Assembly: GCA_037200745.1 (NCBI GenBank) | Contig: JBBCHK010000010.1 | Span: forward strand, 3,101-67,100 | DNA: 64,000 nt | DNA from: Alphaproteobacteria bacterium | GTDB lineage: Bacteria; Pseudomonadota; Alphaproteobacteria; Rickettsiales; UBA3002 | Reading direction: 5' to 3' | Part shown: one piece after another, positions 5,271 through 49,783 of the stretch | Layout: each line of letters begins with the position of its first letter | Position numbering within the stretch: the stretch's first letter is position 1 | Notes under the pieces: generated by a model | Told to the model about the DNA's origin: nothing | What the model saw: only the letters and a program-made list of their open reading frames with translations | The model's database searches: none | Program-made: the position numbers and the translations under genes

Positions 5271-5360
5271 GGATGGGTGGCCGAGTGGTTTAAGGCAGCA
5301 GTCTTGAAAACTGCCATACCCGCAAGGGTATCGTGAGTTCGAATCTCACCCCATCCGCCA
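5271..5360 (+). tRNA. tRNA-Ser (anticodon UGA)
   Basis: GGATGGGTGGCCGAGTGG...; anticodon loop CTTGAAA; long variable arm ATACCCGCAAGGGTATC; T-arm GAGTTCGAATCTC; encoded CCA end. Confidence 0.9.
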
Positions 5361-12305: not shown

Positions 12306-13429
12306 TCAGTTCTGGAAGATCAGTAGCAGGAAGGCGGCGAACAGGATCAGGTGCACCGCGCCCTGCAGCACGTTGGTGCGGCCGCTGGCGAAGGTGACAA
12401 TGCTCACGGTGAGCGTCAGCAGCAGCATGACGATATCGGTGTTCTGCAGCCCGAGGACGATGCTGCGCCCGGTGACGTAGCAGATCGCCAGCACGGCGGG
12501 CACCGTGAGGCCGATCGTCGACAGCACGGAGCCCAGGAATATGTTCACCGAGCGCTGCAGGTGGTTGGCGCGCGCGGCGCGCACGGCACCGATGGCCTCC
12601 GGCGTCGCCACCATCAGCGCGACGATCATGCCGCCGAGCTTGGCCGGCGCGTGCAGCGTGTCGATCAGGTAGTCGATCGGCTGCGCCAGCCGCTCGGCGA
12701 GATAGACGACCGGCACCATGTAGACCACGAGCAGCGCCGCATGGTAGCGCGACGAATGCGCGGCGGGGCCGTCATGCTCCGCCGCCGCATCGTCGCCGAG
12801 GACGAAATACCCGCGGTGCCGGCTGGTCTGGATCGCCAGGAACGCGCCGTAGAGGCAGATCGACATGCCGATCAGGAACGCCCCCCTGCGCGGCCGAGAC
12901 GGTGGGGCCGGGCGTGCTCAGCGTGAAGGTGGGAAGGATCAGGCTGAGCACCGTCAGCGGGATGATGACGCCGAGATACGCATGCGCGCCCCTGCAGGTT
13001 GTAATACTGCTCGCGGTGCTTCCACGCGCCGATCAGCAGCGACAGCCCGACCATGCCGTTCAGGATGATCATCACCACGGAGACCAGCGTGTCGCGGGCG
13101 AAGGTGGGGTTGTTGCCGTGCATCATCACTGCGGCGATGCTCATGACTTCGATCGAGGTCACCGAGAGCGTCAGGATCAGCGTGCCGTAGGGCTCGCCGA
13201 GGCGGGCGGCCACGCGGTCGGCATGGCGGACGACGCAGAACGCCGAGCCGAGCACGGCGGCGAACAGCCAGGCGAAGACGAGCGCCAGCCAGAGCGGGTT
13301 CGCCAGCCCGGCGAACAGCGCGTCGCCGCGCAGGAGGAACACCAGGCTGGTCGCCACGCTCACGCCGAGGAGCCATTCCTTCCGGAGGAACGCGAGGGCG
13401 GGGTGGTTCGGTCGGGCCGCTTGGGTCAT
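12306..13429 (-). pseudogene. chaA: Ca2+/H+ antiporter (CaCA/ChaA family), 2 frameshifts
   Basis: Two alpha-repeat halves (GEPYGTLILTLSVTSIEVM and GGMIVALMVATPEAIGAVRAA). The breaks are at C4 12989-12992 and C6 12881-12886; removing 1 nt from each gives a continuous protein. Confidence 0.8.
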
Positions 13430-13465
13430 GACAGGTGCTGTGCCGTTCTGTGAAGGGAACTGTAC

Positions 13466-14044
13466 TCAGTCTTTCACCGGCACCGCGTGCACGTCAATGC
13501 GGATGCCGACCGCGTCGGCGACGGTGCCCGTATCGGCCCAGCCGACCTTATAGGCGGCGCGCGAGAGCTTGAGCTCGCTGATCGCCCGCTGCCCGTCGAG
13601 CGTGACGGAGAAAGCGAGCGTCACCGGCTGCTTGACGCCTTTCAGGGTGAGCGTGCCGGTGGTCTCGTATACGTCGAGCTTGTCGGAGCCGAAATATTTG
13701 CAGCCATGCGCCTCGAACGTCGCCTGCGGGAAATGCGCGATGTCGAACCAGTCGGCGGTCTTCAGGTTGTCGGCGGCGTTCTCGCTGTCCGACGCCACGG
13801 AAGCGAGGTCGATCGTCGCGGTGGCGGAGCAATCGCCCGGCTTCGCCGGGTCGAGCCGCGCCTCGCCGCTGAAGCGCATGAAATGCCCGTGGACGGCGAC
13901 GTTGTTCTCCGTCGCGGTGAATTCGAGCGTGCTTTGCGGCGCGCTAAAGGTGAAATGCTTCGGCAGCGGCGTGCGGAAACCGGGCGCCGCTGCGAATGCG
14001 ACGACCGGGGCGAGCAGCGCCAGCCATGCGATCCGCCTCACCAT
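13466..14044 (-). CDS. YceI family periplasmic protein
   Basis: Signal peptide plus YceI-like beta-barrel sequence (LEFTATENNVAVHGHF..TGTLTLKGVKQPVTL). Overlaps the cytochrome b561 gene by 7 nt. Confidence 0.85.
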   Translation of the reverse strand: MVRRIAWLALLAPVVAFAAAPGFRTPLPKHFTFSAPQSTLEFTATENNVAVHGHFMRFSGEARLDPAKPGDCSATATIDLASVASDSENAADNLKTADWFDIAHFPQATFEAHGCKYFGSDKLDVYETTGTLTLKGVKQPVTLAFSVTLDGQRAISELKLSRAAYKVGWADTGTVADAVGIRIDVHAVPVKD

Positions 14045-14580
14045 GGCAGCATCCGCGTCAGCACCGTGTCGCGGCGGATGAGGTGGTGGTAGAAGGCGGC
14101 GAGCGCGTGCAGGCTGATGAGGCCGATCAGCAGGTAGGCGCCGCGATTATGCAGCATGGTGAAGAGCTGCGCCTGCTCCTTATTCGCCGCCACGAGATTG
14201 GGCAGCGTCACCAGCCCGAAGACCGAGACCGGGTAGCCGGCGGCGGAGGACAGCGCCCAGCCGAGCAGCGGCATGGCGAACAGCATGAAGTACAGCGCGA
14301 AGTGGCTGGCATGCGCGCCGAGGCGTTCCCACGACGGCATGCCTGCCGGCAGCGCGGGCACGGGATTCGCCTGCCGCCACAGGAAGCGCAGCGCGACAAC
14401 GACGAGGATGCAGGCGCCGATGGATTTATGCAGGCCGATGTCGGTGAGCTTGGCCGGGCCGTTCGGCAGGTCCATCATGGTCAGGCCGAGGGTGAGCATG
14501 AAGATCACCGCGCCGGCGATGAGCCAGTGGAAGAAGCGGGCGAGGATGCCGTAATTGTTCTGCGTGTTACGCCAGCACAT
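14038..14580 (-). CDS. Cytochrome b561 family protein
   Basis: Four TM helices with conserved His residues (FFHWLIAG, GLHKSIG, HFALYFMLFAMPLLGW, HALAAFYHH). Forms the typical operon with yceI. Confidence 0.85.
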   Translation of the reverse strand: MCWRNTQNNYGILARFFHWLIAGAVIFMLTLGLTMMDLPNGPAKLTDIGLHKSIGACILVVVALRFLWRQANPVPALPAGMPSWERLGAHASHFALYFMLFAMPLLGWALSSAAGYPVSVFGLVTLPNLVAANKEQAQLFTMLHNRGAYLLIGLISLHALAAFYHHLIRRDTVLTRMLPW

Positions 14581-16065: not shown

Positions 16066-16253
16066 GTGTTCTCCTATTTCGGGCGCCTGGCACACCATCC
16101 ATGCGCGACCGGCAATTTAACGAGTCTGTAAGCGAATCGCCGGATGCAGGCAAGCGGTTTTTGCCATTGCCGCACAGAGGATTATCGGCACAAACCCGCC
16201 GGGGAATCCCGATTTTTCTTTCCTTCGCGCGACGGCGCCGCTAGCAGGGAGCG

Positions 16254-17833
16254 ATGAGCTCACCCGCCCTGACCGCCAAGGCCTGGCCGTTCGAGGAAGC
16301 CCGCGCCCTGCTCGCCCGCATCGAGCGCGCGACGCGGCCGAAGGACGCGGTGCTGTTCGAGACCGGCTACGGCCCCTCCGGCCTGCCGCATATCGGCACG
16401 TTCGGCGAGGTGGCGCGCACGAGCATGGTGCGCCGCGCCTTCGCGGAGATCTCGGATATCAAAACGCGGCTCATCTGCTTCTCGGACGATATGGACGGGC
16501 TGCGCAAAGTCCCGGAGAACCTCCCCAACGCCGCGATGATCGCAGAAAATATCGGCAAGCCGCTGACCTCGATCCCCGACCCGTTCGGCACGCATGCGAG
16601 CTTCGGCGACCACATGAACGCGCGGCTCAAATCCTTCCTCGACGCGTTCAACTTCGACTACGAATTCAAATCCTCGACCGCCACTTATAAAAGCGGCGAG
16701 TTCGACGCGGCGCTGCTGCGCATCCTGAAAGAATACGACAAGGTGATGGAAGTGATGCTGCCGACCCTCGGCGAGGAGCGCCAGCAGACCTATTCGCCGT
16801 TCCTGCCGGTCTCGCCGCGCTCGGGGAAAGTGCTGCTCGCCAGGGTCACCGCCCGCGACGTCGAAAAGGGCACGATCACTTACGTCGAGGAGGACGGCTC
16901 AGAAGAGATCGTCCCCGTCACCGGCGGGCACTGCAAGCTGCAATGGAAGCCCGACATGGGGATGCGCTGGGCGGCGCTGGGCGTCGATTACGAGATGTAC
17001 GGCAAGGACCACCTCGCCAGCGCGCCGCTTTACGATGCGATCTGCAAAATCGCCGGCGGCACGCCGCCGCAGCAATTCATGTTCGAGCTGTTCCTTGACG
17101 AGAAGGGCCAGAAGATTTCGAAATCGAAAGGCAACGGCATCACCATCGACGAATGGCTGGCCTATGCGCCGCCGGAGTCCTCGCCCTCTACATGTTCAAC
17201 CTCGCCGCGCAAGGCGAAGAAGCTCTATTTCGACGTCATCTCCCCAGCAAGGTGGATGATTACCTGACGCATCTGGAGAAATACGCCGCCGCCGCCGACG
17301 CGGCGAAGCTCGACAATCCCGTCTGGCACATCCATGGCGGCCATCCGCCGAAGCCGGAAAGCCCGATCCGCTTCAGCCTGCTGCTCAACCTCGCCTCGGC
17401 CTGCAATGCCGAAAGCGCGCCGGTGCTCTGGGGTTTCCTCAAGCGCGAGCTGCCGGACGCGACGCCGCAGAACTCGCCGATGCTCGACAAGCTCTGCGGC
17501 TTCGCGGTGAAATATTACCACGACTTCGTCAAGCCGGCGAAACGCTTCCGCCTCGCCACCGATAATGAGCGCGCCGCGCTTGCCGTGCTGCGCGACTACC
17601 TCGCCGCGCTCGGACCGCGCTGCCGCCGTCCGAGGACATCCAGACCAAAATTTACGACATCGGCCTCACCCCATTACGGCAAGGAGACCATGCGCGACTG
17701 GTTCAAGGCGATGTACGAATTGCTGCTCGGCTCGACGCAGGGCCCGCGCATGGGAAGCTTCATCGCGCTGTTCGGGGCGAAAGAGACCATCACCCTCATT
17801 GACACCGCGCTGGCGCGGCGCGAAGCGGCCTAA
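16254..17833 (+). pseudogene. lysK: Lysine--tRNA ligase, class I; about 5 frame changes at C runs
   Basis: HIGH-type motif [10 protein letters not shown] and KMSKS-type motif [10 protein letters not shown]. There are three frame switches within ~17175-17250 and two within ~17610-17680; each is repairable by 1 nt in a C run. Confidence 0.85.
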
Positions 17834-36919: not shown

Positions 36920-38258
36920 TTCTTGCCTTCGCTCATGCCGAGCACCCTGGCGAGCTGCTCGTATCCTTCGGCGAGGCTTGCCGATTCCTTCTCGGGCTGG
37001 GTGATGAAGGCTTCGAGCTGCGGGTAATATGCATCGCGCGGTCGACGTCGGGGTCGGTGCCGCGGCGATAGGCGCCGAGGCGGATCAACTCCGCCATGTT
37101 CTCGTAGGTCGCGAGGTGGCGCCGCGCGGCGATGAGCAGCGTGTTCTCGTACTCGCTGTCGCAGTCGGGCAGCATGCGCGAGACGGACTTCAGGATGTTG
37201 ATCGCCGGTAGCGCCCGCGCTGCGCGATCTCGCGGTCCAAAACGATATGCCCGTCGATGATGCCGCGCACACGCGTCGGCGATGGGCTCGTTGTGTCGTC
37301 GCCCTCGACGAGCACCGGAGAACAGCCCGTGATCGCGCCGGAGCCGACCACGCCCGGCCCGGCGCGCTCCAGCAGCCGGGGCAGCTCGGAGAATACGGTG
37401 GGCGTGTAGCCCTTGGTCGTCGGCGGCTCGCCGGCGGAAAGCCCGATCTCGCGCTGGGCCATGGCGAAGCGCGTCACCGAATCCATCAGCAGCAGCACCT
37501 GCTTACGCTGGTCGCGGAAATATTCGGCGACGGCCATCATCGTGTAGGCCGCCTGCCGGCGCATCAGCGCCGATTCGGAGGAGGTGGCGACGACGACGAC
37601 GGAGCGCTTCAGCCCCTCCTCGCCGAGATCGTCCTCGATGAATTCCTGCACCTCGCGCCCGCGCTCGCCGATCAGGCCGATGACGTTGACGTCCGCCTGC
37701 GAATAGCGCGCCAGCATCGACATCAGGATGGATTTGCCGACGCCGGAGCCGGAGAAGATCCCCATCCGCTGCCCCGGCAGCAGGTGAGGAAAGTGTTGAT
37801 GGCGCGCACGCCGAGATCGAGCTTCCCCGCAACGCGGGCGCGCGACGCGGCGGCCGGCGGGCTGGCGCGCAGCAGGTACGGAATGCCGCCTTTAGGCAGC
37901 GGCCCCTTGCCGTCGATGGGATTGCCATCGCGTCGACGATACGGCCGAGCCATGCGTCCGACGGCTCGACGGCGGAGGCGGAAGCCAGCACCGTGACCTT
38001 CGCCCCCAGCCCGACGCCCTCGACCGAGGCGAAGGGCATCAGCAGCGCGATGCCCTCGCGGCCGACGACCCTCGCACAATATTTCATGGTCCGCGCCGTG
38101 GCTGCCCTGCACCTTGCAGCGCGCGCCCACCGACAGCGCCTGCTCGATCCCGGTCGCCTCGATCAGCAGCCCCTTGAACCGCGACGACCCCGCCCGCTCA
38201 GCTCATAGGTCGGCAGGCGGTCGAGTTCGGCAAGCAGGTGCTGGCGCAGGGTGGACAT
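36916..38258 (-). pseudogene. fliI: Flagellum-specific ATP synthase FliI, at least 6 frame changes
   Basis: MSTLRQHLLAELDRLPTYE.., Walker [48 protein letters not shown], and C-terminus ..YPQLEAFITQ are spread over three frames. Confidence 0.8.
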
Positions 38259-38396
38259 CGCGGCGGAGTGTAGCAGAAAGGCAACGCGGGGGCCAGCGTC
38301 GCAGCGACAGGAAGCGCTTTTCTTTCAATCCCATAGCACATGTGTGGTATTCGGCTGTCATCAAATCGTTAAAATTGTGATTGAGTTGAGGCATCC

Positions 38397-38411
38397 TTAA
38401 GAGTATGTTAA
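38397..38411. promoter_or_regulatory. CtrA-box-like motif TTAA-N7-TTAA in the fliI/ctrA divergent intergenic region
   Basis: TTAAgagtatgTTAA at 38397-38411, followed by further TTAA half-sites at 38415-38418 and 38423-38426. About 100 nt upstream of the ctrA ATG. Confidence 0.4.
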
Positions 38412-38514
38412 CACTTAACGCGTTAAGGACTGGTCGCTGATTTCTCCGGGTTTCCTGCGGCCGGATTAACAAGTAGAGTTTGGCATTCTTAACCACGAAT
38501 TCAGGGGGATTTCG

Positions 38515-39252
38515 ATGCGGGTATTACTGGTAGAGGACGATCCTTCGACCGCGAAAGCCATCGAGCTTTCCCTCGCCTCCGAAGGCATCATCTGCGACAC
38601 GACCGAGCTCGGCGAAGAAGGGCTCGAGATCGGCAAGCTGTACGATTACGACATCATCATCCTCGACCTCATGCTGCCGGATATCGACGGCTACGAGGTG
38701 CTGCGCCGCTTCCGCGCCGCCAAGATCAACACGCCGATCCTGATCCTGTCCGGCCTCTCCGGCCCCGACCAGAAGATCAAGGGCCTCGGCTATGGCGCCG
38801 ACGATTACCTCACCAAGCCCTTCAACAAGGGCGAGCTGATCGCGCGCATCCAGGCCATCGTGCGCCGCTCGAAGGGGCACTCGGAGTCGGTCATCCGCAC
38901 CGGCAAGCTGGTGGTCAACCTCGACACCCGCTCGGTCGAGGTCGCCGAGAAGCCGCTGCACCTGACGTCGAAGGAATACGGCATCATGGAGCTGCTCAGC
39001 CTGCGCAAGGGCTCGACGCTGACCAAGGAGATGTTCCTCAACCACCTCTACGGCGGCATCGACGAGCCGGAGCTCAAGATCATCGACGTCTTCGTCTGCA
39101 AGCTGCGCAAGAAGCTGCAGGACGCATCGGGCGGCGAGAACTACATCGAGACCGTCTGGGGCCGCGGCTACGTGCTGAAGGACCCGGAGCCCGGCGCCCT
39201 GCCGGCCACCGCCAAGGAGACCAAGCGCAAGAAAGTGGCGGAAGAAGTCTAG
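38515..39252 (+). CDS. ctrA: Cell-cycle response regulator CtrA (OmpR-type DNA-binding)
   Basis: [108 protein letters not shown]. Near-identical blocks to characterised CtrA proteins. Confidence 0.93.
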
Positions 39253-39271: not shown

Positions 39272-39308
39272 AAAAAGCCCGCCCGTAGAACGGCGGGCTT
39301 TTTTATTG
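39272..39308. terminator. Bidirectional Rho-independent terminator between ctrA and cheW
   Basis: AAAAAGCCCGCC-cgtagaac-GGCGGGCTTTTTTATT. A-run and T-run flank an 8-bp GC stem, and the cheW stop lies in the T-run. Confidence 0.75.
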
Positions 39309-39749
39309 CAGCGCGCCCAGCACGCCGTCGAGATTCAGCAGGGCGAGCAGGCCGCCTTCGTGGCGGACGATCTCGGTGGCGACGCGCTTCCAGGATTCGT
39401 CCACCGTCGCCGGGGCGCGGATGAAATCCTGCGGCCGCGCGGTGATCAGCTCCTCGACCTTGTCGACGACGAGCGCGATCTCCTCGTCCGCGTGCGCCAC
39501 GACCAGCACCGCCTGCGAGGCGCCTTCCGGCGGCTTCGCCATGCCGAAGCAGCGCCGCAGGTCGAGCACGGGCACGATCTTCTCGCGATGCGTGGCGATG
39601 CCCACGATGCCTTCCGCCGCCAGCGGCACCGGCGCGACCTCGATGTCGCGCAGCGCATCTTTCACCTGCGCCACCGGCAGCCCGTAAAGCTGCGCGCCGA
39701 TGCGGAAGCTCACCAGCATTTCGGTCTGCTCATGGGCGGCGCTGCTCAT
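39303..39749 (-). CDS. cheW: Chemotaxis coupling protein CheW
   Basis: 148 aa single CheW-like domain (LVSFRIGAQLYGLPVAQVKD..GIATHREKIVPVLDLRRCFG..ALVVDKVEE). Confidence 0.85.
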   Translation of the reverse strand: MSSAAHEQTEMLVSFRIGAQLYGLPVAQVKDALRDIEVAPVPLAAEGIVGIATHREKIVPVLDLRRCFGMAKPPEGASQAVLVVAHADEEIALVVDKVEELITARPQDFIRAPATVDESWKRVATEIVRHEGGLLALLNLDGVLGALQ

Positions 39750-41207
39750 GCGACCTCCCGCAGGCGGGCGACGTCGATCACTTCCGCCTCGATGCCGTCG
39801 AGATCCAGCCTGTGCCCCTTCACCGGCGCCTCGACGACGTCGACCACCTGCTCGACGGCGATGCCGATGCGCTGGCCCTCAACCCCGGTGAGCACCACCA
39901 GCTCGGCGATGTTCGGCCGCTCGGTGCCCGGCAGCGTGGCGATGCGCATGTGCTCACGCGGCGCGCCGATGGCGTCGATGCGGCTGACGTCCTCAAGCCG
40001 CAGCGCCTTGAGCGCGCCACCGCCGGCGCGGAAAAGCAGGAAGCTCGCTGGCTTTAGCAGCGCTTCGCCGACGGCCGGCTTCGGCGCGGCGACCGGCGGC
40101 AGGTCGGCGACGTCGCGGAAGCCGATGCTGCGCGCGATGCCGGCAGGATCGAGCACGAGCAGCGGCGTCGCGCCGCCCAGCTGCACGCAGCCGCGATAGA
40201 GCGGCAGCCGCGAAAGCAGCGCAGGCAGCTTGCGCTGCACCGCTTCCTCCGGCTCGCCGAGCGTGGCGAAGCTGAGCGCGAATTCCGCCTCGCCGACCTT
40301 GACGATGGCGATGCTGTCCTCGCGCGCCGCCTCGACCTTCAGCAGTTCGGCGAGCGACACCAGCGGCACGACGCGCTCGCCGGCGAGCAGCACGCGCACG
40401 TTGAAGACCGTCTCGATGCGCCAGTTGCCGAGCGCGTGGCGATCGAGCAGCTCGAGCACGTAGCGCTCGGGCAATGCGAGCTTCGCCGCGCCGGTTTCGA
40501 CCGGCAGCAGCGCGACGACTTCGAGCCCCGGCGCCTGCGGCCCCTGCGAGCCGCGCAGCGCGTCGGCGAGCGTGCGCGTCAGGGCGCCGAGCTTCTGGAT
40601 GGGCGCGGCGAGCGTTTCGTCGCCTTTGGCTTTCAGTTGCTGGCGCAGGGCGATGAGCTCGCCCACCGCCCAGGCGAGTTTTTCCAGCAGGGCGCGGCGC
40701 GAGATCGTCGGGCTCGGCGTTTCGAGCCCGTGGCGGATGGCCTCGCGCTGTGCCTGCGCCGAGATCGGTGCGGGCGGCCTTGCCGGTTTCGCCGGCAGCA
40801 GCGCCGCGTTCGGCAGCGCCAGCGGCGCGATGGCGGGGGCGGGCTCGGCAAGCTGCGGCTGCGGCGCGCGCTTGAGGTGGGCGAGCAGCGCCGTGTCGTC
40901 GCCCTGCGGCTCCTCGCCGTGCGCGGCGAGGTGCTGGATGAGGTGCTTGATCTGCGCCAGCGCCTCGATCAGCGCGAAGCTGCCCTCGCCGCCGCGCGAC
41001 AGCGCTTCCTCCGCCGCCTGGGCGATGGCTTCGAGCCGCTTCAGCCCGAGGAAGTCCCGACGTGCCCTTGATGGTGTGGACGAGGCGCGAGATGGTGGCG
41101 AGGATCTGCGTATCGCCGGGATTCTGCTCGAGGCGCACGAGCTCGGCATCGAGCAGCGCGAGCGATTCGCCCGTCTCCTCCAGGAACTCGCCGATGAGAT
41201 CGTCCAT
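39746..41207 (-). pseudogene. CheA-like protein with Hpt (P1) domain and two CheW-like (P5) domains but no HATPase_c kinase domain; 1 frameshift after the Hpt motif
   Basis: MDDLIGEFLEETGESLALLDAELVRLE..ISRLVHTIKGTSG|FLGLKRLEAIAQ (phospho-His motif HTIKG). A ~100-aa Pro/Ala linker follows, then two CheW-like modules. No N/G1/G2 ATPase boxes in any frame. Confidence 0.7.
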
Positions 41208-41208
41208 A

Positions 41209-41297
41209 GACTTGCCTTGCCGGTTCTGCGTCCGTTTTGAGGTTGTGGATATTACAGGGCACTGCGCTATTGTGAAGCGTTATCCACAAGGCAAGTC
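41209..41297. promoter_or_regulatory. Split inverted repeat containing a consensus DnaA-box sequence upstream of the cheA-like gene
   Basis: GACTTGCCTTG (41209-41219) and TTGTGGATA (41243-41251) are mirrored by TTATCCACAAGGCAAGTC (41280-41297). TTATCCACA equals the canonical DnaA box. Confidence 0.3.
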
Positions 41298-41303
41298 CGG
41301 TTT

Positions 41304-41605
41304 TAGTGGTGGCTGTGCCACGGGGGTCGAAGACGCCCCCGCTACCGGTTGACTCGCTATCGCTCGTCTCCCTCCGCTTCGCTCCGGGTCCCCTCGTTCG
41401 CTTCGCTCCGGCTCGCCTATTCGGCTACGCACGGATGAATTGGAACTCAGAATATTCTCAGCGCTTCCGCACTGCCTGCGTAGCCCGTCAGGGCGAGCCC
41501 GGAGGCGGCCGGAGGCCGCCGAAGGAGGGGGAGCGGAGCGGGGGCGAGTTCGCGAAGCGAACTTGAATTCGCCCCCACGCGCCGACAGGCGCCAATCAAA
41601 AACTA
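41304..41605. repeat. Mosaic palindromic element, copy D (full length; type-1-like left end, type-2 right arm)
   Basis: TAGTGGTGGCTGTGCCACGGGGG...CCCCCGCTACCGGTTGACTCGCT... Inverted core CCGCACTGCCTGCGTAG at 41467-41483. The right arm is the reverse complement of copy A. The chpT stop sits at its last 3 nt. Confidence 0.8.
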
Positions 41606-42268
41606 GCTCGCCGCCGCGACGGCGAGCTGGTGCTGTGTCGCGACGATCTCAAAGAGGTCACTGTGTGCCTCCACGGCGAGCGTCGCGCCGACTTCTTCGG
41701 CGATCTTGCGGGTCAGGAACGGCTGGGCGCTTTTCGGCGACAGCATGGAATCGTCGCCCTGGCCCTTGAGGATGAGCGCGGTCTCCGGGTCGAGCTTGAT
41801 GGTCTCGCCCTTGCCGCTCAGCGTGACGATCTTGTCGCCCGCCGCATTGGTGCCGATGCGTACCGAGATGGTGCCGCCACGGATCATCGCCGCCGCGGCG
41901 ATGACGAACATGTTGAGGATCAGCCGCGCCGTTTTCTGGCTGATCGAGATGCCGGCGGCGTCGGTATGGGTGTCGGGCCAGTCGAGCTTGACCTTGCTGC
42001 CCTCGAAGAAATTGATGGCGAGCTGTTTCTTGTCGGCCAGGCAGGCCTCGCCGGAATCCGACACGCGGCCGTAGGCCTGGCGGTAGAACTGCAGGCGGTT
42101 GACCGCCTCGTGGGCGCTGGAGAGGATGAGCTGCACGGCCTCGTGCTGCATGTCGAAGCCTTCGTCGCCCAGGAACTCGGCGCCGTTATTGACCGCGCCG
42201 ATCGGGCCCGTCAAATCGTGGCACAGGCGCGTGCACAGCATTTCCGCAAGTCTGGTCTCGGATACCAT
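41603..42268 (-). CDS. chpT: Histidine phosphotransferase ChpT
   Basis: LAEMLCTRLCHDLTGPIGAVNNGAEFL (phospho-His in the CHDL context) plus a degenerate HATPase-like C-terminal half. 221 aa. Confidence 0.85.
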   Translation of the reverse strand: MVSETRLAEMLCTRLCHDLTGPIGAVNNGAEFLGDEGFDMQHEAVQLILSSAHEAVNRLQFYRQAYGRVSDSGEACLADKKQLAINFFEGSKVKLDWPDTHTDAAGISISQKTARLILNMFVIAAAAMIRGGTISVRIGTNAAGDKIVTLSGKGETIKLDPETALILKGQGDDSMLSPKSAQPFLTRKIAEEVGATLAVEAHSDLFEIVATQHQLAVAAAS

Positions 42269-42360
42269 CGGGCCACTTTCTAACGATTCGCGTCAGGTTT
42301 CGCCATGATTTTTATGCTAGGCCCGAAATCTGAAGGAATCGTTAAACTTTTAGGCTTTTT

Positions 42361-49036: not shown

Positions 49037-49783
49037 ATGGCAGGCCATTCCACGCAAAGAACGTCGCCCGGCGCAAGGGCGCGCAGGACGCGAAAAAAGC
49101 GAAGATCCTCACCAAGGTCGCGCGCGAGATCATCGTCGCCGCCAAGTCCGGGCCGGACCCGAACTTCAACGCCAAGCTGCGCGCGGTGCTCATCAAGGCG
49201 CGCCAGTCCGGCATGCCGAAGGAACGGGCGGACGCCGCCATCGCCAAGGGCTCGGGCACCGGCAGCATGGAGAATTTCGAGAGCGTGCGCTACGAGGGCT
49301 ACGGGCCGGGCGGCGTCGCCGTCATTATCGAGGCGCTGACCGACAACCGCAACCGCACCGCCGCCGAGATCCGAAGCATCTTCACCAAGAGCGGCGGCAA
49401 CCTCGGCGAGACGGGCTCGGTCGGTTTCATGTTCGAGCGCGTCGGGCTGATCGACTATCCCCGCCGAGCGCATCATCGAGGACGCGATGCTCGAAGCCGC
49501 CATCGACGCCGGCGCCGAGAACTGCGAAACGGCGGACGGCGTGCATACCGTCACCACGAGCATGGAGTCGTTCAACGCCGTGCGCGACACGCTGGCGCAG
49601 AAATTCGGCGACGCCACCGAGGGCAAGATCGCCTGGCTGCCGAAGGTCGCGGCGAATGTCGGCGGCGAGCAGGCCGAAGCGCTGATGGACCTCATCGACG
49701 CGCTGGAAGATAACGACGACGTGCAGGACGTCTTCACCAACGCCGAGTTCGACGCGGCGACATTGCAGAAGCTGAGTGCATAA
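49037..49783 (+). pseudogene. yebC: YebC/PmpR family transcriptional regulator, 2 frameshifts
   Basis: MAGHS|[62 protein letters not shown]..|..[19 protein letters not shown]. The first break is a C-run undercall at ~49050. Confidence 0.85.

Follow-up and report, generated by a model that had tools for sequence, protein, structure and literature searches.

Can a CheA protein be retained after the loss of the domain that makes it a kinase and, if so, in what capacity? The question is raised by a minus-strand gene situated between chpT and ctrA in a 64,000-nucleotide (nt) stretch, hereafter the window, of a metagenome-assembled genome (MAG) of an uncultured alphaproteobacterium (Rickettsiales, UBA3002). 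The core of CheA is P1-P3-P4-P5 (Berry et al. 2023, PMC10782961), and the survey concerned presents these four domains as an indivisible functional core, with HATPase_c present in every CheA by construction of the data set. In the protein encoded in the window, P1 with its phospho-accepting histidine and P5 are present, while P4 is not. The gene is the positional ortholog of an F5-class cheA, and it seems to have been kept as a signalling part without catalytic function. The reading favoured here, which is held with moderate confidence, is that its product is a non-catalytic array or Hpt component that could be phosphorylated only in trans.

Reading frame of the gene

The gene and the single position at which its frame is interrupted are as follows.

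39746..41207, minus strand: kinase-less CheA-like gene with the predicted layout P1-linker-P3-P5-P5', 486 amino acids (aa) after removal of one base.
41054..41055, minus strand: extra base (GGA-C-TTC), the deletion of which restores ...KGTSG joined directly to FLGLKRLE...; the frame change was also mapped by tblastn.

The interval comprises 1462 nt, i.e. 3n+1, and is covered by two overlapping minus-strand open reading frames (ORFs). The ORF at 39993..41207 starts with MDDLIGEF...RLVHTIKGTSG and continues as Arg/Ala-rich nonsense, whereas that at 39746..41149 starts as nonsense and then reads ...FLGLKRLEAIAQAAEEAL.... Coding thus runs in frame -3 to 41055 and in frame -1 from 41053 (FLGLKRLEAIA...) to the stop at 39746-39748, the DNA at the shift being ...AAG GGC ACG TCG GGA C TTC CTC GGG CTG AAG.... 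Removal of either A41055 or C41054 yields one 486-aa ORF with HTIKGTSGFLGLKRLE, which matches every homolog. A preliminary description of the window, made from the sequence alone, had called for a single frame correction just past the Hpt motif; this was borne out, and all three peptide strings that it quoted are found in the corrected product. The truncated ORF carries the NCBI label 'chemotaxis protein CheW'.

Absence of the ATP-binding domain

When a full-length CheA was used as a tblastn query, P1 and P3 were matched over 41207-40556 (query residues 52-228 falling on 41053-40556) and P5 with P5' over 40525-39830 (query residues 419-675), leaving only 30 nt between the two matches where approximately 190 aa would be expected for P4. 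The same query gave no match to P4 anywhere in the 64 kb window, and no HATPase_c was found in any frame of 39746..41207. In the alignment with full-length CheAs, the excision of P4 is clean and in frame. Since the ATP-binding domain is absent, the protein is incapable of autophosphorylation, as had been concluded in the preliminary description. The architecture proposed there, an Hpt domain followed by two CheW-like domains without HATPase_c, was likewise recovered by Pfam, by alignment with F5 CheAs and by tblastn, although the second CheW-like domain reaches only 16.3 bits. The accompanying statement that the linker is too short to hold P3 and P4 was correct for P4, given the 30-nt gap, but not for P3, which is probably present.

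A deletion introduced during assembly might have removed a kinase domain that the organism possesses, a possibility named in advance as one that would overturn the claim, and the window MAG is indeed rich in indels. This explanation was rejected and may be regarded as effectively refuted: the junction is in frame, and an identical layout without room for P4 recurs at seven syntenic loci in independent assemblies from four sources (Logan, ENA, NCBI and JGI).

Domain organization of the product

The layout was drawn from the alignment with full-length relatives together with an AlphaFold (AF2) model, which covers aa 52-486 with a mean predicted local distance difference test (pLDDT) score of 81. 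On these grounds the architecture appears to be P1-linker-P3-P5-P5'. An F5-invariant position is defined as one that is at least 90% invariant among 58 full F5 CheAs.

40892..41207, minus strand: P1/Hpt, aa 1-105; Pfam Hpt E 2.8e-12; 38/46 F5-invariant positions retained.
40727..40891, minus strand: Pro/Ala-rich linker without P2, aa 106-160; alignment and AF2.
40547..40714, minus strand: putative diverged P3 dimerization hairpin, aa ~165-220; alignment with H-kinase_dim of full CheAs and AF2 helices.
40121..40534, minus strand: P5, first CheW-like domain, aa ~225-362, directly after P3; Pfam CheW and Foldseek.
39749..40054, minus strand: P5', predicted second CheW-like domain, aa ~385-486; alignment with the second CheW of F5 CheAs, beta-rich in AF2.

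The Pfam scan of the corrected translation, which had been proposed as a check, placed Hpt at aa 3-95 and detected CheW as two stretches (E 7e-10), again without HATPase_c; the NCBIfam CheA models matched only the N-terminus. The codon of the phospho-accepting His44 (HTIKG) occupies 41076-41078, and His44, Lys47 and Glu66 are all kept in the alignment. The Hpt site therefore looks functional as far as its residues indicate, and the concern that the context of the histidine might be defective found no support.

Within the linker, the motif EAIRHGL (aa 155-161, ~40724-40744) is predicted to form an isolated short helix at low-to-moderate confidence. It belongs to a subfamily consensus, (Q/K)xAI(R/Q)(H/Q)GL(E/D), that is common to many P4-less proteins and lies at approximately the place where IRVxVD begins P3 in full CheAs. 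What had been described as a short coiled segment of the linker is instead a probable diverged P3 hairpin, which aligns with H-kinase_dim and for which the model predicts a pair of long helices (aa 170-194 and aa 197-220). The window protein gives no Pfam match to P3 and retains 12/27 F5-invariant positions of this domain; Pfam does recognise the domain in the P4-less relatives P0004, P0139 and P0219.

The first CheW-like domain, scanned alone, scores 30.7 bits (E 2.7e-7) against a Pfam gathering score of 23.5 and retains 27/57 F5-invariant positions. Foldseek searches of the PDB gave significant matches only to CheA P5 and CheW of T. maritima and E. coli, the best being T. maritima CheA P5 with CheW (4jpb_A, target-normalised template modelling score 0.89, root-mean-square deviation 2.0). 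In the model, P5 spans aa ~229-360 and the second CheW-like domain, preceded by a disordered stretch (aa ~373-383, pLDDT <50), spans aa ~387-485. Scanned alone, the second CheW-like domain scores 16.3 bits (E 0.0077), under the gathering score. This domain aligns column for column with the second CheW of F5 CheAs, retains 13/18 F5-invariant positions and carries an internal deletion of ~14 aa that is also found in the closest relatives. As Pfam is weak or silent for P3 and P5', both assignments are drawn from homology in the alignment and from the model.

Derivation from an F5-class cheA

F5-class CheAs are recognised by their tandem CheW domains (Berry, Andrianova & Zhulin 2023, PMC10782961). 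The window protein has two of them in tandem, and its gene shares its chromosomal slot with bona fide F5 cheA genes. The C-terminal receiver (REC) domain, common but not universal in the class, is absent from the window protein; the P4-less P0209 and P0219 possess it. The genes flanking the slot in the window are listed below.

39303..39749, minus strand: cheW, 148 aa; Pfam CheW E 5.5e-25.
41603..42268, minus strand: chpT, encoding the histidine phosphotransferase of the CckA-ChpT-CtrA relay, the conserved upstream neighbour; Pfam HPTransfase E 1.1e-25.
38515..39252, plus strand: ctrA, the conserved convergent downstream neighbour; NCBIfam CtrA equivalog 411.8 bits (cut-off 350).

In a related MAG (locus L012), the order is rsmB-rpe-SIS-chpT-cheA-cheW-cheY-cheB-cheR-ctrA-x-fliI-fliJ-x-pdxH, where x is an unannotated ORF; its cheA encodes a protein of 920 aa (P1-P3-P4-P5-P5'-REC), and its CtrA is 93% identical to that of the window. 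A Falsiroseomonas locus (L002) is arranged as chpT-cheA-cheW-cheY-cheB-cheR-rraA-ctrA-fliI-fliJ and encodes the best full-length homolog, an 850-aa CheA with Hpt, H-kinase_dim, HATPase_c, CheW and REC. The window and loci L001, L007, L008 and L009 have the same block with a short gene, then directly cheW, then ctrA. Since it occupies the slot of the full-length cheA of L012 and L002, the window gene is its positional ortholog. The locus as a whole is a reduced che operon minus P4, REC, cheY, cheB and cheR; no remnants of cheY, cheB, cheR or rraA were found in the window by tblastn.

The resemblance to F5 CheAs extends to the N-terminal MDDLI...HTIKGTxGFLGL of P1, the absence of P2, the succession of P3, P5 and a second CheW-like domain, and the cheW gene that follows. 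The differences lie in the missing P4/HATPase_c and receiver, in an operon devoid of cheY, cheB and cheR, in P3 and P5 domains that lack about half of the class invariants, and in a second CheW-like domain shorter by 14 aa.

The ATG of cheW overlaps the stop codon of the kinase-less gene (ATGA), and a stop/start abutment or overlap with cheW is also present in L001, L007-L010 and the full-length locus L012; the two genes are translationally coupled. chpT adjoins cheA even in distant Acetobacteraceae, and comparison of these gene orders indicates that the chpT-cheA-ctrA adjacency is ancestral rather than newly evolved. The position of a hybrid kinase beside a histidine phosphotransferase suggests that a CheA-REC -> ChpT -> CtrA route is possible.

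The complete F5 che operons of L002 (7274-16577) and L012 (9266-19168), with a hybrid CheA-REC, lie between chpT and ctrA/fliI. At L004 (3138-18450), the CheA lacks REC and chpT is situated ~4 kb upstream. The L012 cheB (13627-14229) encodes 200 aa comprising the methylesterase domain only, without a receiver domain.

Distribution of P4-less proteins and probable recurrence of the loss

In a word-indexed protein search, P0002 (561 aa, 42% identical) was the sole further full-length match, accompanied by the P4-less P0004; a second such search with the family alignment returned nearly all full-length CheAs and was set aside. The family was recovered only by an exhaustive HMMER search over 1.84 billion cluster representatives, which brought the P4-less clusters to at least 13 at 50% identity. 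This search yielded P0121, P0124, P0129, P0130, P0139, P0169, P0185 and P0233 (511-578 aa, all P4-less), as well as P0209 and P0219 (~700 aa, P4-less with REC) and two fragments.

The P4-less neighbourhood was found at seven loci, namely the window, L001, L007, L008, L009, L010 and, in part, L003, and the kinase-less ORF is intact at the six loci besides the window. The sole locus returned by a GTDB genome scan for relatives, L011, has DNA 100% identical to L007 and belongs to the same organism. Locus L010 (10001-12971) encodes a P4-less CheA of 706 aa that ends in a receiver; cheW and a single-domain cheY of 122 aa come next, and cheB and cheR are both missing. This gene content makes the locus an intermediate state of operon reduction.

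Two groups stand out in ChpT identity, one made up of the window with L001, L007 and L008 (70-76%) and the other of L009 with L010 (75%), while ChpT of the full-length L012 is equidistant from both (60-64%) and that of the P4-less L003 lies outside all others (43-47%). The deletion junctions also vary, ...DAWxK(F/Y)P... being retained in P0004 and P0185 and not in the others. As L003 falls outside the clade that holds the full-length L012, and as the junctions differ, P4 was probably lost at least twice independently, a count based on one marker (ChpT) together with the junction differences. A neighbour-joining (NJ) tree of the shared domains was rejected for counting losses, since it places the P4-less proteins on long basal branches with a risk of long-branch artefact.

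Retention or decay

The main rival to retention is the slow decay of a dispensable operon. It holds that a vanishing che operon has left the P4-less gene and cheW behind without function and that the frameshift has already been lethal to the gene; it is considered unlikely. The protein identities across the block bear directly on it.

ChpT: 75% window versus L001; 76% window versus L008.
SIS: 74% window versus L001; 63% window versus L008.
CtrA: 83% window versus L001 (C-terminal 35 aa only); 96% window versus L008.
RuvB: 82% window versus L008.
Kinase-less CheA: 42% window versus L001; 37% window versus L008.
CheW: 49-50% window versus L001; 41% window versus L008.

Several observations favour a relic or weigh against the favoured reading. 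cheY, cheB, cheR, P4 and REC are all gone, and the kinase-less cheA and cheW are by far the fastest-evolving genes of the block. P3 and P5 lack about half of their F5-invariant positions, so that array docking and dimerization may be weakened or altered. Arg replaces the phospho-accepting His in two relatives, P0124 (L008 10001-11581, LVRTIKG) and P0233 (FLRTIKS), the rest of P1 being kept; phosphorylation of P1 is thus dispensable at least there. In a genome of 70% GC, long ORFs may persist by chance, and a long open frame is by itself weak evidence of function. The frameshift just past the Hpt motif could be genuine. Finally, neither a partner kinase nor any other che gene beyond cheW was found in the 64 kb window, which accords with the preliminary description, nor was a partner kinase seen around the relatives, up to 10 kb on each side for L008-L010 and within contigs of 3-4 kb for L001, L003 and L007.

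The frameshift was evaluated by tblastn, for which intact L008 proteins served as queries over approximately 23 neighbouring genes of the window. About 14 frameshifts were found, distributed over 8 of the 23 genes, all eight of which are intact in L008: yebC (1), kinase-less cheA (1), fliI (~4), orf261 (1), ahpC-like (1), dsbD (at least 3), flavodoxin-like (2) and ham1 (at least 1). ruvABC, rsmB, rpe, SIS, chpT, cheW, ctrA, fliJ and pdxH are unshifted; the shifts in fliI and yebC are located at 36922-38258 and 49051-49780, respectively. The kinase-less cheA thus has one shift per 1.46 kb against a background of ~0.7 per kb. Since this rate equals that of the MAG, including housekeeping neighbours, the frameshift is uninformative about this gene specifically, and intact ORFs of the family exist elsewhere. 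It is most likely an indel error of the MAG assembly. The same gene fragmentation is seen in the public annotation of the matched contig JBBCBH010007065.1 (GCA_037975565.1). The GTDB genome scan, a JGI metagenome protein-pattern scan and an exact-DNA-pattern scan across the frameshift revealed no further copy of the strain. The shift sites show no clear homopolymer pattern, so the sequencing technology cannot be deduced from them.

Elsewhere in the window, a Na/Ca exchanger gene is split at 12306-13465, a class I lysS (LysRS) gene is apparently truncated (16245-17267), and argH and lysA appear fragmented. Broken genes are concentrated at ~12300-38300 and 49050-49780, and the stretch from 50 to 64 kb is mostly clean. 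The cause of the many broken genes could be either assembly indels or genome decay.

Other features fit poorly with a decaying relic. The excision of P4 is clean, in frame and probably repeated in at least two lineages, unlike random damage. Full ORFs and their abutment or overlap with cheW persist in lineages in which ChpT is 43-76% identical to that of the window, and P1 retains 83% of the positions that are invariant in real CheAs. The kinase-less proteins occupy longer branches than full CheAs in the NJ tree of shared domains, yet their identity among relatives is 37-47%, far above the neutral expectation, as neutrally evolving DNA at such divergence would be unrecognisable. P1 is the best-conserved domain of the family (45-66%, versus 23-43% for P5). 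Family pairs other than L007/L011 are at most 50% identical, with synonymous sites saturated, so that the ratio of non-synonymous to synonymous substitution rates is unusable. The sequences thus show protein evolution that is fast yet constrained.

Possible function and source of phosphate

An F5-class cheA has lost P4 by a clean in-frame excision, and in the window lineage also its receiver; cheY, cheB and cheR have gone from the operon, leaving P1(Hpt)-linker-P3-P5-P5' and the coupled cheW. The kinase-less protein may still dimerize via P3 and could, with CheW, use its CheW-like domains to join chemoreceptor arrays as a subunit without catalytic activity. Phosphate could reach P1 only in trans. 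It might be donated by P4 of a complete CheA from another locus, within a mixed array or a heterodimer, or arrive by back-transfer from a phosphorylated receiver, and P1 might then act as a phosphate shuttle, as a sink or merely as a docking site for receivers. The presence of REC and cheY at L010 without P4 is argued to mean that phosphate flow continued after loss of the kinase, and the His-to-Arg variants to mean that in some lineages a structural or docking role alone is left. The preliminary description had stated that the protein must receive phosphate from a separate kinase. The lack of a kinase of its own stands, but the requirement was only deduced, and the Arg in P0124 and P0233 shows that it is not family-wide.

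It was also suggested there that the protein resembles the split CheA3/CheA4 arrangement. A dedicated split kinase of this type, in which a specific P3-P4-P5 protein or a full CheA encoded elsewhere phosphorylates His44, is distinctly improbable. Like CheA3 (PMC10782961), the window protein is of CheA lineage and combines a working-looking Hpt with CheW-like domains in the absence of a functional kinase, which would make it dependent on trans-phosphorylation; the catalytic residues of P1 are intact, the retained P3 would permit heterodimers, and L010 keeps REC and cheY without P4. The likeness is nevertheless formal only. CheA3 of Rhodobacter (Cereibacter) sphaeroides carries a 794-aa insert with phosphatase function in which Hpt, P2, P3 and HATPase persist as degenerate remnants (PMC10782961), whereas the window protein lacks this region, has P4 cleanly excised and P3 retained, contains two CheW-like domains and derives from an F5 cheA, in an operon that has lost cheY, cheB and cheR. 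cheA4, the partner of cheA3, lies in the same operon, and the two are operon neighbours in Rhodobacteraceae (PMC10782961); no P3-P4-P5 gene was seen around the seven loci (at most 10 kb on each side, three of them being contigs of 3-4 kb). The two His-to-Arg relatives also speak against such a system.

A further explanation is rewiring to the CtrA relay, in which the Hpt and docking domains of the protein would exchange phosphate with, or localize, the receivers of CckA-ChpT-CtrA. The block left after reduction (chpT, kinase-less gene, cheW, ctrA) is conserved across the clade, P1 is its protein's best-conserved domain, F5 CheAs are hybrid kinases with REC, the usual type of donor for ChpT, and chpT stands beside cheA even in distant Acetobacteraceae. 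However, the adjacency predates the reduction of the che operon and gives no sign of new coupling, a 395-bp spacer with a terminator-like hairpin parts chpT from the gene in the window, and the gene has no CtrA box upstream. Rewiring is accordingly regarded as very improbable. Only slightly less remote is a broader proposal, namely that this uncultured alphaproteobacterial clade repeatedly turned an F5 kinase into an Hpt-plus-scaffold protein that, with its CheW, feeds CckA-ChpT-CtrA rather than chemotaxis, as a second array-anchored phosphotransferase or as a docking site for receivers of the CtrA pathway.

Genomic context

Window CtrA is 93-96% identical to CtrA of L008-L010 and L012. The window ChpT matches NCBIfam ChpT models at E 1.6e-40, yet under the curated cut-offs. 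Other neighbours are fliI and fliJ and, upstream, SIS, rpe and rsmB; no methyl-accepting chemotaxis protein (MCP) signalling domain was found in the 64 kb window, and no MCP was seen in the sequence flanking the gene at L007-L010 (up to 10 kb on each side, 3-4 kb contig for L007).

The spacer between chpT and the kinase-less gene is 90-281 bp long in relatives and 395 bp long in the window (41208-41602). Inverted repeats are nested within it (41328-41343/41537-41552 and 41380-41412/41508-41540), a 24-nt unit is repeated in tandem at 41375-41422, and the terminator-like hairpin (41540-41576) directly follows chpT. No Rfam match was obtained in the spacer, which may represent the insertion of a small repeat element. 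The leader of the gene is enclosed by the arms of a perfect inverted repeat of 11 nt (41209-41219/41287-41297), the 3' arm ending 2 nt before the ATG; the leader fold has a minimum free energy of -31.7 kcal/mol (z -2.7 versus shuffles), and this predicted fold could block access to the ribosome-binding region.

The sequence upstream of ctrA (38386-38503) holds one CtrA box without mismatch (TTAA-N7-TTAA, 38397-38411) and two sites with a single mismatch (at 38386 and at 38489), which is consistent with autoregulation. A one-mismatch box also lies upstream of chpT (42331-42345); among these genes, boxes occur upstream of ctrA and chpT only. The window contains 11 CtrA-box sites versus 2.5 expected. 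Across the whole window, Rfam returned a single match at the gathering score, a tRNA of 87 nt (5271-5357, plus strand), and the poorly coding stretch at 5.3-11.2 kb holds no rRNA operon.

Relation to described architectures and outlook

CheA-lineage architectures without HATPase_c have been reported as the rare 'split' forms CheA.XI and CheA.XII (Vass et al., bioRxiv 10.1101/2022.05.07.491035), with which the window protein shares the combination of Hpt and CheW-like domains without an ATP-binding domain. Like the CheW and CheV scaffolds, it has CheW-like domains that would allow receptor coupling without kinase activity, but it also possesses a CheA-derived Hpt and a putative dimerization hairpin. 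Searches of a literature library retrieved no description of a P4-less F5 CheA or of the chpT-cheA-ctrA linkage; a P1-P3-P5-P5' derivative of an F5 CheA in the chpT/ctrA slot is absent from the described architectures.

Proteins of this kind are overlooked both by the annotation 'CheW' and by classifications centred on CheA. The conserved gene order, with the che operon set between chpT and ctrA, hints at a possible link between a chemosensory array and the CtrA relay. F5 CheA orthologs that lack exactly P4, a state that is long-lasting and was probably reached repeatedly, constitute a natural experiment on what a CheA may do when freed from its kinase, as a scaffold, a phosphate shuttle or a dock for receivers.

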